Assembly (NCBI GenBank): GCA_964016885.1
Contig: OZ024740.1
Location: 79,546,001-79,610,000, forward strand
Direction of reading: 5' to 3'
Length of the DNA: 64,000 nucleotides
DNA from: Eledone cirrhosa
Lineage: Eukaryota
Shown here: one piece after another, positions 1 through 47,975 of the stretch
Numbering within the stretch: the stretch's first letter is position 1
Layout: every line of letters begins with the position of its first letter
Made by a program: the position numbers and the translations under genes
The notes under the pieces: generated by a model
What the model was told of the DNA's origin: nothing
Databases searched by the model: none
What the model saw: the letters and a program-made list of their open reading frames with translations, nothing else

Positions 1-280
1 AATATACAGGATGGGTTTGGGGTCTCAATCATCATCATCCTCATCATCATTGTTTAACGTCCGTGTTCCACGCTTGCATGGGTTTGGACGGGGGTTTTCC
101 CACTTGAGGCAAGAGTGATTATCTTGCTCGCATAGGACTATCTGGCGGGTTTTCTACAGCTGGATGCCCATCCTAACACCAACCACATTTACAACAATAT
201 GTAAACTAAATGATTTTAAAAAATCAACAGGAACAAACTAGAAAAAGAACCGATTTTCCAACCCCCACCTATTATTTAGG
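1..280 (-). mobile_element. TA-flanked MITE family M, copy E (cut by window edge), carrying a retroposon insertion
   Basis: GATGGGTTTGGGGTCTCAAT...ATGTAAACTAAATGA...AAATCAACAG...CCGATTT...CTATTATTT matches copy D (42492-42895) once 30-198 is removed. Confidence 0.75.
30..194 (-). mobile_element. 5'-truncated (GAT)n-tailed retroposon (RTE 3' UTR or SINE tail)
   Basis: Reverse complement of ~1855-2010; (CAT)n at the left end; CAAT duplicated at 26-29 and 195-198. Confidence 0.8.
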
Positions 281-1349
281 AGGGGGGAGGGGTAAATTTT
301 CAAAAAAGTTAACTGTTCAATAGAAAAAAAAAATCGACTAAAATTATGAAGTTCTTTTTAAGTAGTTCCATCACTACTTTGACGCTATAAAATCGCGTGT
401 GGTTCTGGAAATGTTTAACCCTTTCATTTTCATATTTCTAATGAAAGACACTGCTGGTGTCTGGAACATAAAATTATGGTGGTAGGGTGAATTCAAATAT
501 ATACACTTTATGAATTCTTGCAATCACCATTTTTTATGTCCACTTTTTCATGCTGACAGGAATTGGGCAGGGATATCTTTTCCCTCTAAGACGAGAGCTA
601 ACCCTTATTTGCATTTCTATGTAAAGTTCTGATGAAACCACTGAGCTGCTAAACATTGTTTAGGCTGGACATAAACAAATACCACCATCAGTGCAAGCAG
701 TGTCAAATGCAAAATCATAGACACACAAACTACAAAACCATATATGGAGTTCTGGCATTGTTTACTGTATGTAGTAACCATGATAGTTGAGACTCCAGAA
801 TCTGATATCTATGAGTAGATATGAAAGTTTTAATAACTTATCTGTGAGAATCTTTGTTAATTCTAGCAAATACAAACCAATAAATCTTATGAAATTCAAT
901 TGTAAATCTGACATCAGAGATCATTCAAAGTGTTATACCTAAATCAGTCCACATAGTAGCAGTATTGTATGTAATATCATATCATATTGTATTGTCTGCT
1001 GACTTATAATGCTATGTTATATGATACACACTTTAAAGACTATTTCTGGTAGGGTTATATATCCAAACTGAAATTATTAAATTTGTAAGTGAGAAGAAAT
1101 ATAAATAAAACAAAAGCAATGTTATATTTCAAAGAATAAGTTTTGTGGAATGGCCATTAATACAAGACGATCGATAATAACTGACAAAATGATTTATTGA
1201 CCAACTTGTCTGCTGTAGCATCTCCCAATTCTCTTTCTACCAATTCATTTATATGTTTATATATTATACACATACACACACTGTTGGTTGGCCTTGGCTG
1301 GCAGTACAGAATTGCAGTCTCAAGTCACATCATATTACTGGTGGCTGTT

Positions 1350-2010
1350 AACTTCACAAGGGAAAAATTAGAAATAAGAGGGATTAGATGTTATTTACTC
1401 GAGAGAAGGCTACGTTGGTATGGTCACGTGATGCGCATGAAAGACGACAGCTGTATAAAAAAGTGCAGGGCAATAAAAATAGACGGTAGCCACGGAGTAG
1501 GCAGACCCAGAAAAACCTGGGACGACCTGATAAGTTCCGACCTCACACACTTACACCTCTCCAAGACAATGTCACTGGACTGAGATCTTTGGCGGTACTC
1601 AGTAATAGAGAAGACCCGCCTTACCTAAGTACAAAGTAAAACCTACTACAGTCAGTAGGCATCTCTAACAAAATACACCCCCGTCCCACCACCCCCACCC
1701 CATCCACACCGCCCCTTTCAATGTAAAGTTATGTTGGTGCCACAACATCCAGGCCGAAACAAATGAGGTCGTGTAGGTGTCACAACAAAAAAACACAGTC
1801 CACGCTGTAATGTGGCCGTGTAGGTAACATGGTAAAAACCTCCCAGTCCCACACTGTAAATGTGGTTGGTGTTAGGAAGGGCATCCAGCGGTAGAAAACA
1901 TGCCAGGTAGTCCTATGCGAGCAAGACAACCACTCTTGCCTCAAGTGGGAAAACTCCCGTCCAAACCCATGCAAGCGTGGAATATGGACGTTAAACGATG
2001 ATGATGATGA
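1350..2010 (+). mobile_element. 3' end of RTE-clade LINE with 3' UTR and (GAT)n tail
   Basis: Translation RRLRWYGHVMRM...GRPRKTW is the typical RTE C-terminus; reading continues past an in-frame TGA as DLWRYSVIEKTRLT*; ends in GATGATGAT. Confidence 0.8.
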
Positions 2011-4525
2011 TTCTGTGAGCTTTGTTGTTATTGTCTGTATGTTCAAACTTGAAGGCAGTGAATTGGCTGGGTCATTTGAACGTTGGTTATCCTGGCTGTG
2101 TACATTGAGTTTAAATCTCATTAAGGTCAACTTTGCTGTTCATCTTTACATGGTCAATAAAAGAAGTACCAGTCCAGTGCTGGAGTTGATTCTTTCTCCA
2201 TATCTCTTTCTTACCCCCACCCTCCTGCTTTTCCCCCCTTTCCTCTTCACTCAATGAAATCGACTATGTTCAGACCTGGAGAGGGGATGGGCTGTACTAG
2301 GTTTACTATATATTCAGGGTCAATATTTTGACGATTTTCTGCTTCAAATTCTATGTAAATAAGTTGCTAAAATATCTGGAGTGATAATCTCACAATGAAA
2401 CAGTTTTTCTACATTTACATCATCATTGGTTTTATTTATGCATTCCAACAGATTTTTATAATTTGAACTTTTTAATACATGAATATCCCATACATATAAG
2501 TGTGCGCGCGCACACACACACGTTTTTCTCTTACTTAATATTACTTTTTCTTTCAATCTCATGTGTGACTGAAATCTTCTGATTTTATTTCTCTCTCTCT
2601 CTCGTTCTCCCTCTCTCTCTCGTTCTCCCTCTCTCTCTCTCTCTCGTTCTCCCTCTCTCTCTTTCTCTCTCTCCCTCTCTCTCTCACTCCCTTTTCTACT
2701 CTATGAATCCCTATACAAAGTTCCCTTATTTGCTCACTTGCTTTCAAAGTACTCCTAGCATATGAGTGGCTAGAAGTAAATAAAAATTCAAGAAACTTGT
2801 GAAACCTAACATAATGGAAACTCATGTAATGGAGTTGTGAAACAAAAACTATATTTTAAACATCAAAATCTTAAAACTTCATAAATATATTTTATACTCA
2901 TGAGTATTTCAAAACCATGCCAACTAAACAGAGTGTGTTGATTAGCTGCCTTGGATAATAAATAGGGTTTGGATTTTTTTTACCATTTCTCAGATATAAA
3001 ATAGTGGGGTCAGCTTATATTTGAATATATACAGTAATTCAATTGAAACTATTTTTTCACAACTGTTTAGTTCATGTCTTTATAGTTATCACTGAATTGG
3101 TGTGATCCACTCATATGAAGGTACGTGGCTTAGTGGTTAGGTTCATGATCCTAACTTTGTGGATTCAAACTATAGACTGGGTATCACATCGAGGTCATAC
3201 TTCAAAGCACTTCATTTTTCATTACTCTAGTTCATTCAGCTGAAGACTAGTGCTATCAGTAGCACTTGGTTAACTCTGCAACAGTCCTTTGTTGTTGTTA
3301 TTGTTACACCTCACACCTATGTAGGTTTATCTTACGTCTGAGGTTACCTCTCATAGGGAAGTTTCTCAGGTGTTTTAATAAGTGGTCCAGTCTTGTCATG
3401 TAAAGCAATGTAAAATCATCTTGCTTAAGAATAACACAATGCTCAATCCAGGAATTGAACTCACAATGTTTTGACTGTGAGTCTAACACTCTAACCACAA
3501 ATGACTCACCATAGGAGACACTAAATATGAAGACATTAATGGTTTGTCAAAATTACCTTGGAACCCTTCCAATGATTGCTATTTTCATTTCTCTTCCTGT
3601 GCTCACTTTAAAATGTCGAGACACCTACTGGGTACATACATATGTTTGTGTGTGTCTTTAATATCATCCAATGGGTGTGTTTCTTGCAGAAAATATCTCT
3701 GTATCACATTGTTTTGGATAGTGGACATTTCAGCAGATGTATTTTAACACAAGTGTATGTGTATATATTTATATATATGTATATATGTATGCACATGTGT
3801 GTATATATATGTATGCACATATGTGTGTATATGTATATATATATATATGTGTATGTATATTTGTGTGTGTAAATGTCTACATAAATAATTGTATTTGAAT
3901 GTGTATATTTGTATGTATATGTATATATATATTTATATATATGTGTATGTATATTTGTGTGTAAATGTCTACATAAATAATTGTATTTGAATGTGTATAT
4001 TTGTATGTATATGTGTGTGTGTATATATGTGATATATACGTACATGTGTGTGTGTATATATTATGTATATGTGTTTGTGAGAGAAATTAGGTAGCCTCTT
4101 TTATTTTGAAAATTAGGTTTAACCTGGAACTATTTCATGGAACATAATGGGAGTGACTTATTGTCATGTTGTCTGAATGTGTGCTGGGGATAAGGGATGT
4201 AATGGGACAATTGCATAATAATTATAGTTGTAGACATGGTGATTAACAACTTAGAATGTCATCTGTTAGGTGGGGAACAGAACCTGGTGAATTCTCTCAG
4301 GAAGGTTAGTGGCATGTGTGTGTGTAGGGGGGTGCTTTTGTTAATGTTTTGCATTCTCTACTTTATTAGTGCAATTGTGGTTTAGCCCTGCATCAGTCTT
4401 CATCAACAGCTGCTCTCTAGTCTCCAGTCATCCTTCATTAAATATAGTCTCTAAATTGTGAGTCAGCCATGATCAAAGCTGTTCTAGCCATATACATATA
4501 TCTTATTCGGGTATAGTTTATTTAA

Positions 4526-46652: not shown

Positions 46653-46920
46653 GATGATGATGATGATGATGATGATGATGATGATGATGATGAAGAAGAA
46701 AGGGGTGGTGGGGTGGAGGAGGAGAAAAAGAAAGGTGGGGAGGAGGAGAAGGAAGAAGAAGAAGAAGAAGAAGAAGAAGAAGAAGAAGAAGAAGAAGAAG
46801 ATATAGAAGAGGAGGAAGAAGAAGCAGAAGAAGAAGAAGAAGAAGAAGAAGAAGAAGAAGAAGAGGAGGAGGAGGAGGAGGAGGAGGAGGAGGAGGAGGA
46901 GGAAGATAGGGGAGGAGGGG
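46653..46920. repeat. (GAT)n/(GAA)n/(GAG)n compound microsatellite
   Basis: Directly visible. Confidence 0.9.
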
Positions 46921-47128
46921 AAGGGTTCTAGCCCTTAAACGATTATGTACCTAAAATCCGTTTGTGCAGCGACTTTAGAAGCTACACACCCTGTCACATA
47001 GGAAATCAACTATTACGATTGTCATTTTAAAAAGCTGTCTCCTCGGTTTTTTTTTATAATCACGTATTTTCCAACTGATAAAGTGTTTCCTGTTACATTA
47101 TAATCTCTGTGAGAAGATATATTATATA

Positions 47129-47975
47129 CTCCTGCTTACTCCCAAATAATAGGGGAAGAGTGGAATCGGTAATTATTTTAGGTTCTCTGTGTTGATTTAA
47201 AAAAAACCCAGAATTAGTCATTTAGTTTGCATATTGAAACCCCAACCATTCTTCTTCTTCTTCTTCTTCTTCTTCTTCTTCTTCTTCTTCTTCTTCTTCT
47301 TCTTCTTCTTCTTCTTCTTCTTTTTCGCCCCTTTATTTCCGAGAGGGTCGTGGGTGCAGAATCATCAAACACTCCTTCCAGCGGGTCCTGTCAGAAGCAA
47401 CCGTCTCCAAGTGATCTGGCTGGATCCCCAAGCGAGACCAGCCAAATTCATGGATGCTATCCAACCATCTTGCTTGGGGTCTACCCATGGGTCTCCTCCC
47501 AGTTGGTTTTGCCCGTAAACTCTGTCCAGCGATTCTTTCCTGAAACATTCTACCCACATGCCCGTAGTATCGGAGCTGTGATCTCTCAATTCGGAGAAGT
47601 AGTGGCTCTACCTGGAGTGACTCTCTGATCTCCAAGCTACGCATTCTATCAAGTAACGTTACACCAAAAACCTTTCGGAGGAACCCCATTTCGGCCGATT
47701 GTATTCGCAATCGTATTCTTTCGGTCATTACCCAAGATCCATGGTCTTCTTATTTATTTTATTACGTATGGGATTTCTATTAATGTAATTTTTTGGTCAT
47801 GGATAATATTTTTTAATGTATAAAGAAAATGAATTGTCGCAAGAATGCTAGCACTTAAAATAAAATTTCGCCGGAGATTGATTAGCAAAATTTAATAAAT
47901 GGGGGTGTGGGGTGGAAAAAATCTGAAAAATTAATATGCGGAGGCGTGGGGAGACGATTATTTGAGATCCGAGAA
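47129..47975 (+). mobile_element. TA-flanked MITE family M, copy C, interrupted by an RTE LINE
   Basis: The halves match copies A, B and D; ends ATTATTTGAGATCCGAGAA|TA. Confidence 0.8.
47249..47743 (-). mobile_element. (GAA)n-tailed RTE LINE 3' fragment, well preserved
   Basis: Open 131-aa frame AEMGFLR...RSQLRYYGHVGRM...GRRPMGRPQARW and a long (TTC)n tail. Confidence 0.88.

Follow-up and report, generated by a model that had tools for sequence, protein, structure and literature searches.

Three LINE fragments nested at neighbouring positions of a MITE family in Eledone cirrhosa: a local outlier at a site estimated to be empty in most copies

MITE copies and their inserts in the window

Five copies of a MITE (family M) lie in the analysed stretch of Eledone cirrhosa DNA (64,000 nucleotides, contig OZ024740.1, positions 79,546,001 to 79,610,000 of the forward strand; hereafter the window), all at the places given in the original prediction. 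As had also been claimed, copies A and D are uninterrupted at the site in question, and three of the five copies are struck within ~20 bases: E at consensus 123-126, B at 135 and C at 139-140. The features are as follows, with part boundaries taken from BLAST tables and rulers.

1..29, minus strand: right-hand part of MITE copy E, consensus ~123 onwards; bases 26-29 form one of the two 4-bp duplicates
30..194, minus strand: insert in E, a 5'-truncated, MITE-sense piece of the (GAT)n LINE family made up of tail and 3' UTR; the family encodes RT and PHD in L156
195..281, minus strand: left-hand part of MITE copy E (consensus ~10-126), which has lost the outer bases of its TIR
13525..13822, plus strand: empty MITE copy A, flanked by TA at either end
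33567..33736, plus strand: MITE copy B, left part to consensus 135, within an old ~150-bp tandem unit
33737..34516, minus strand: insert in B, antisense to its MITE, comprising the 3' part of an RTE-like LINE with a (GAA)n tail
34517..34590, plus strand: inverted stretch of the insert in B, taken from the end of the endonuclease domain; a 5' inversion that twin priming likely produced
34591..34830, plus strand: MITE copy B, right part, beginning with the duplicated 8 bp
42491..42894, minus strand: empty MITE copy D, flanked by TA at either end
47129..47248, plus strand: MITE copy C, left part to consensus 139
47249..47746, minus strand: insert in C, antisense to its MITE, with ~420 bp of the RTE-like LINE family of B and a (GAA)n tail of 26 units
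47747..47975, plus strand: MITE copy C, right part

The MITE consensus, built by script from 31 copies, measures 365 bp, with TIRs of 21 bp (2 mismatches); of 83 projected copies, 52 have TA on the left and 66 on the right. Short and non-coding, with TIRs, TA ends and many copies (~2150 with an exact 14-bp anchor), the family has the properties of a MITE and would be TA-type, Tc1/mariner-pogo-like. Copy E extends 250 bp further upstream of the window. A 27-bp array at 49631-64000 was also considered as a coding repeat, which is unsupported, with stops in all six frames.

The insert in E is 165 bp long and lies between the two copies of its 4-bp duplication (26-29 and 195-198). The (GAT)n-tailed retroposon predicted here stands, with the correction that it represents the 3' UTR from a different, second family of LINEs, of which a 2.2-kb copy found elsewhere at the MITE site of E has RVT_1 and PHD domains. 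Copy B holds an 854-bp (GAA)n LINE (33737-34590) between 8-bp duplications (33729-33736 and 34591-34598, one mismatch), again as predicted; to this we add the inverted endonuclease piece at its 5' end. The left junction of B is without tail overlap. The (GAA)n LINE in C was likewise recovered (~500 bp), with a possible 5-bp duplication overlapping the tail. No Pfam match was obtained for C's own frame.

The two LINE families have 26% identity in the C-terminal region, and both carry the short microsatellite 3' tails of RTE elements, (GAA)n and (GAT)n. RTE-clade LINEs carry endonuclease and reverse transcriptase in a single long frame and have no ORF1; in L139 and L149 the endonuclease end and the RT are presumably colinear, judging from their motifs, with no intact full-length copy among those fetched. 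An Atlas search gave 'Reverse transcriptase' as its first match, at low recognition. The tree of the (GAA)n family is star-like and contains no clade corresponding to a special subfamily at the site, which was rejected on these grounds. CRE-like LINEs targeting the MITE (L082, L188, L207) were also rejected, their pieces occurring at dozens of places in 1.1 Mb, untied to MITEs. As a side result, 5' inversions are frequent in the RTE-like family, with an opposite-strand piece in 8 of 38 checked copies.

Occupancy of the site across the genome

Genome-wide, 2209 anchored MITE copies were found, against 62 in a reversed control, and 1119 of the 2209 match the exact empty-site pattern. Junction searches with a long tail and with an internal motif returned B and C only. 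A four-unit tail pattern is too strict, because many copies have two or three units; internal-motif and combined-tail searches were therefore added, recovering 8/27 and 26/38 sampled ends. The combined-tail searches yielded two new antisense (GAA)n inserts, at positions 137 and 138, and recovered E itself with two new (GAT)n inserts at its junction, plus one insert of a third family. A neighbouring control window gave 1 direct match in the combined-tail search (1.12 expected). Pooled over the 31-nt site, there are 4 new hits versus 1.58 expected (P=0.075), while 40% site occupancy would predict ~254. We estimate that ~0.9% of MITE copies are occupied at the site.

Sampled DNA gives a similar picture. 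Here 99 MITE copies (84 + 15) run unbroken through the site, and no LINE tail junction lies there in any of the few broken copies, compared to five LINE inserts elsewhere in the MITE (~165, 238, ~247, 270 and ~295). A further sampled copy, L207, carries a tail-less LINE piece joined at 150, which may first have inserted at another position. Breaks number 14, 11 and 19 in three equal segments of the MITE, with the site in the first. None of the 29 closest (best-match) LINE 3' ends adjoins any MITE, and none of the sampled 3' ends of the two sets lies at the site (0/27 and 0/38), with 2 of each at other MITE positions. The site is thus not struck far above the rest of the MITE, and retroposon copies are not largely flanked by it. 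The proposal of a landing pad, with one transposon targeting another, is not supported by these figures: in the sample the rest of the MITE is struck at least as often, and insertions are largely spread along its length.

Site preference and the origin of the cluster

The four new hits lie on other chromosomes and match the window inserts in family, strand and position, with different 5' ends. E, L153 and L152 have one junction in common, with inserts of ~165, ~390 and ~2200 bp from two subfamilies; B, C, L136 and L137 are (GAA)n inserts within 6 nt. Each site thus holds independent, differently truncated copies. Tested against a uniform null, the new hits cluster strongly (P ~0.001 per family, with widths picked post hoc). 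A fine-scale insertion preference in the MITE is real but weak, and it is in this weaker form that the predicted RTE-endonuclease target is retained, with weak support from four further hits at matching positions, strand and family. The three window hits likely reflect an ordinary mild LINE sequence preference in an unusually hit stretch rather than a landing pad, since an estimated ~1/100 MITE copies is occupied at the site.

We consider it reasonably probable that the LINE fragments in E, B and C are old and likely stem from separate insertions at two neighbouring, probably mildly favoured spots that are empty in an estimated ~99% of copies. Each would have inserted by target-primed reverse transcription. 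For the (GAT)n family, minus-strand priming would take place at consensus 123-126, at a point where tail and target overlap by two bases and a three-T run lies ~10 nt upstream; the (GAA)n family would prime on the plus strand at 135-140. The inversion in B could reflect twin priming at MITE positions 124-130, where 7 nt match the LINE RNA, and a short gene-conversion patch between B and C may have followed. On this view, a selected outlier in a window rich in LINEs would account for three of five copies being hit. The T-run signature suits the site of E in the consensus and is absent at the B/C site. Rebuilt empty sites number 7 and 6 for the two families, and 6/7 (GAA)n sites continue with T; a target model from so few sites was dropped.

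Whether the cluster represents three events depends on B and C. The predicted independence of E from both holds, as its LINE family and strand differ; for B versus C independence is likely, not proven. B and C probably inserted independently, judging from their sequences, because their MITEs are 16% apart, their flanks unrelated and their LINEs not sisters. The original prediction had likened B to the copy at 23350, which is not so: B is 20.9% from that copy and 14.6% from C. The MITE distance is 16.4% (78% of 3403 pairs are equally close or closer), and the two MITEs have only common alleles in common. Together with the 14.6% LINE distance, that of the MITEs rejects a recent copied chimera; a segmental duplication is rejected by flanks in which only common repeats are common to both. 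Diagnostic mutations common to B and C in both LINE and MITE, which would have spoken for a single ancestral chimera, are confined to a short LINE patch. This patch is a two-allele haplotype of which B and C are the sole carriers among 4386 copies (0.9 others expected, alleles picked post hoc), and because of it gene conversion or copying between them may have occurred. The pair ranks 5 of 1164 in a conversion-tract test and 82 of 1164 in a shared-branch test over the whole insert.

The same patch speaks for a single B and C event, in which the LINE of C came from B by break-repair copying (13.5 kb apart) or a LINE-carrying MITE made an early local hop, C afterwards lost its 5' part and B's tail eroded the left junction, leaving only two independent window hits. 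B and C do agree in family, strand and window, they are 3.8% apart over LINE positions 173-276 compared to at least 6.9% to 27 other copies, the LINE side of B's tail is eroded, and P for at least 2 of 5 is ~1e-3 to 1.5e-2. We nevertheless regard this as unlikely, though worth keeping in view. Rare MITE alleles common to both are absent, the shared-branch rank is modest, two or more private alleles are common to 13/666 pairs, a change at consensus 130 is in both duplicated copies of B and absent from C, and four close duplicate pairs that were checked do have common flanks, unlike B and C.

Taken as separate hits, 3/5 in the window exceeds chance and is an unexplained outlier: P for at least 3 of 5 is ~1e-5 if 1% of copies are occupied and 6e-4 if 4% are, uncorrected in a window picked for its oddity. 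A chromosome stretch unusually open to these LINEs, in which weak MITE sites are struck above the genome rate, would suit the density of LINE 3' ends here, which at 12 over 49.6 kb is 3.7 times that of the sample. It is an improbable explanation, given that the site is empty in the four other MITE copies within 110 kb upstream and in the sole site-covering copy within 200 kb downstream, and that even 4% occupancy leaves P so low. We hold it similarly doubtful that either RTE-like family has its own sharply favoured, strand-specific nucleotide in the MITE, a nascent transposon-on-transposon targeting in a clade that lacks fixed targets; such favourites would stand tens of times above the average base and also above other tail-matching sites, and in one family the 7-nt RNA-target match would help by inviting twin priming. 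True targeting, with LINE endonucleases recognising the MITE site as in Tx1-Mar and Mariner-N4_AMi, appears very improbable. In its favour, a single nucleotide has taken three independent (GAT)n inserts and a 6-nt stretch four of (GAA)n, and the two sites differ in orientation, as they do in crocodilians; the low occupancy, the lack of closest or sampled 3' ends at the site and the break counts per segment speak against it. For the family as a whole it is largely refuted; a small targeting subfamily could survive, but the tree holds no such clade.

As matters stand, the significance of the finding is small: a striking local cluster of nested insertions can mirror <1% genome-wide occupancy. Its use is methodological. 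Thousands of copies and a known empty sequence make such a MITE a natural reporter of where LINEs prefer to nick, and it hints here at strand- and family-specific favourite bases. Should these favourites turn out to exceed by far what ordinary tail overlap can account for, they would illustrate a possible start of target specificity in RTE-like elements. The frequent 5' inversions in the RTE-like family deserve counting.

Comparison with known systems

Kojima 2015 (PMC4494074) describes Tx1-Mar LINEs and SINEU in Mariner-N4_AMi of crocodilians and Tx1 in Tx1D of Xenopus, all Tx1 clade elements, with 13%, 23% and 90% of copies target-flanked. As in those systems, retroposons here lie within a non-autonomous DNA transposon of similar age, in two struck regions with opposite orientations and as independent truncated copies. 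In contrast, no sampled 3' end lies at the site, and the elements are RTE-like rather than of the Tx1 clade. No title on RTE elements targeting a MITE appeared in the literature searched, mostly at the level of titles.

In PMC4245944, which discusses twin priming and 5' inversion of human L1, inversions in human cells were seen almost only with L1. B resembles these in its inverted 5' piece, in a duplication that spans 8 bp or more and likely began as 12, and in the 7-nt LINE/target match at its second junction; the inversions here differ in belonging to an RTE-like family.

A close parallel to the preference itself is the soft insertion signature of RTE-clade LINEs and their SINEs, as set out by Nishiyama and Ohshima 2018 (PMC6007223). 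Common to both are microsatellite 3' tails, a tail/target overlap of one to a few bases and preference without a fixed target. The site of E further resembles those of many animal RTEs described there, with its three-T run ~10 nt upstream and a duplication that begins with A, while the (GAA)n site has an A-run in place of the T-run. The preference here comes from repeated hits in one MITE, unlike the genome-wide profile described there. With these differences noted, the weak site preference in the MITE appears to fit the soft RTE insertion signature of PMC6007223.

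The MITE family and its occupied copies

All five positions originally predicted for the MITE in the window, which lies on contig C1 of the 3.0-Gb genome, were confirmed. The repeats of the window seem to be of cephalopod type. The MITE consensus is 365 bp long with 21-bp TIRs; TA is present at the two ends in 52 and 66 of 83 copies, and the median divergence from consensus is 7.9%. The state of the insertion site (MITE consensus ~122–143) in each copy is as follows.

1–281, copy E, completed by 250 bp beyond the upstream edge of the window: 165-bp sense insert from a (GAT)n-tailed element, flanked by a duplicated 4 bp corresponding to MITE consensus 123–126
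13525–13822, copy A: site empty
33567–34830, copy B: (GAA)n LINE, antisense, junction after MITE consensus 135
42491–42894, copy D: site empty
47129–47975, copy C: (GAA)n LINE, antisense, junction after MITE consensus 139

The MITE and the (GAA)n LINE are similar in age, since divergence from the LINE consensus is 9.8% for the B insert and 7.6% for the C insert. The sequence inserted in E comes from a second LINE family, of which it is the 3′ UTR; a 2.2-kb copy of that family matches RVT_1 and PHD. In this family a PHD finger directly follows the RT domain in nearly open frames (locus L156, 7173–9027), and its 3′ UTR is an abundant short repeat, which the window contains six times.

The B insert is terminated by an inverted endonuclease piece, which in relatives runs on with 7 nt identical to MITE 124–130. 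Twin priming could have produced B, in which case this identity would be the needed match. Inversions of the 5′ end appear common in the (GAA)n family, 8 of 38 checked copies having a LINE fragment on the opposite strand no more than 1.5 kb away (e.g. window 33737–34590 and ~22500–23400; loci L081, L095, L114, L128 and L129); one study observed such inversions almost exclusively with L1 (PMC4245944). At locus L137 (1410–2366), the left half of a MITE is followed by two LINE pieces facing head to head and then by a reversed second MITE; the right half of the first MITE is missing within 10 kb.

MITE B is enclosed by an old ~150-bp tandem unit (33430–33560 and 34832–34960), its flanks being 71.5% alike over 130 bp. 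A second MITE subfamily (L067, L073, L082, L166, L245) has identical TIRs and a different interior without the reported site. A different inverted-repeat element of ~165 bp is inserted at a TA within a MITE at consensus 177 (L193, 4555–4722), and L079 contains four copies of a ~2-kb tandem unit, which comprises one complete MITE plus two fragments of LINEs. A strongly A-skewed tandem array of a 27-bp unit occupies window positions 49631–64000; the window contains 535 copies of the unit, and all six frames have stops.

Genome-wide occupancy of the site

A left anchor, the 14 bp immediately left of the site, gave 2209 genome matches compared to 62 for the reversed control, with the exact empty-site motif directly following in 1119 of the 2209. 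Genome-wide, the anchor plus four tail units was found in B and C only, and the anchor plus an internal LINE motif in B only. A looser pattern for both tails, which recovers 8/27 and 26/38 of sampled 3′ ends, yielded two new (GAA)n inserts at consensus 137 and 138 (contigs C2 and C6). A right-hand anchor (denominator roughly estimated at about 875) yielded E, two further (GAT)n inserts at E's junction (contigs C3 and C19), as well as a single third-family insert. Occupancy is estimated at about 0.9%; given the measured recovery, about 254 matches would be predicted if the (GAA)n family occupied 40% of copies. At the site, four new matches stand against an expectation of 1.58 based on local density (P = 0.075); in an adjacent 31-nt window, used as control, there is one against 1.12. 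Both expectations are upper bounds, because all LINEs are assumed younger than the MITE. A further control match is nested in another element, itself inserted at ~133.

In sampled loci, picked via the anchor alone or via tiling, consensus 105–160 is unbroken in 84 copies and 15 more, including three segmental-duplicate pairs. None of the broken sampled copies has a LINE tail junction at 122–143. Breaks in or near the site are listed below, by MITE consensus position; the clade labels are those we presume.

115–122: 75-bp insert
131 and 140: truncations
139: Tx1-like neighbour
140 and 152: CRE-like neighbour
150: tail-less LINE piece, which may not mark the original insertion point

Raw breaks per 52-bp segment number 14 for the site segment, with 11 and 19 for the others. 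Inserts of both LINE families occur in sampled MITEs at ~165, 238, ~247, 270 and ~295. Those at 238 and ~247 are antisense (GAA)n inserts (L081 ~4870 and L044 ~1350; 2 in about 95 anchored copies), which suggests that other MITE bases are at least equally favoured; positions 238–247 are possibly warmer than the reported site.

Counting from the LINE side, a MITE adjoins none of the 29 closest (GAA)n 3′ ends, and none of the sampled LINE 3′ ends (0/27 and 0/38) lies at the site. With these counts and the low occupancy, the proposal that the MITE acts as a landing pad is not borne out.

Three occupied copies of five, and the relation of B to C

The probability of three occupied copies in five is about 1e-5 at 1% occupancy and 6e-4 at 4%. 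LINE density in the window is 3.7 times the sampled density, and the site is empty in all five nearest other MITE copies examined. Selection of this window from tens of thousands, local density and a possible B–C link may jointly explain the three.

B and C were originally proposed to be independent events, and several observations agree. Their MITEs are 16.4% apart with all shared alleles common, their flanks are unrelated and each has its own TA ends, and their LINEs are non-sisters. Furthermore, the pair ranks only 82 of 1164 in a shared-branch test, and a change at MITE consensus 130 is present in both duplicated copies of B but not in C. The proposed pairing of B with the LINE copy at 23350 was unsupported, as B differs from it by 20.9% compared to 14.6% from C. 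A linked origin is nevertheless possible: a two-allele LINE haplotype is confined to B and C among 4386 copies, with 0.9 others expected, although the alleles were chosen post hoc and 13 of 666 pairs have at least two private alleles in common. In a tract test the pair also stands fifth of 1164, below four pairs that all involve duplicated or older copies and closely above many unrelated pairs. Because the shared alleles fall within about 50 bp, a later conversion patch suits them better than common descent. We consider that B and C were probably inserted separately.

Fine-scale preference and published comparisons

The new matches agree with the window inserts in family, strand and position. 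Under a uniform null, two (GAA)n matches within 6 nt have P of about 0.001, as do two (GAT)n matches within 3 nt, with both widths fixed after the matches were known and the null disregarding ordinary sequence preference. E and the two new inserts at its junction, L153 and L152, differ in their 5′ ends and represent two subfamilies, and are therefore separate events.

In a published targeting case, the target flanks 13–90% of copies (PMC4494074). The RTE insertion signature published in PMC6007223 combines an overlap with the tail and a run of T located about 10 nt upstream; the supplements of that paper may carry signatures of further RTE families. E's site agrees with this signature in both respects, while the B/C site is without the T-run. 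Given the repeat matches and E's fit, the MITE contains favoured bases. Hence, of the preferred RTE target originally predicted, the structures are real and a weak preference is retained, but it is a preference of already known kind.
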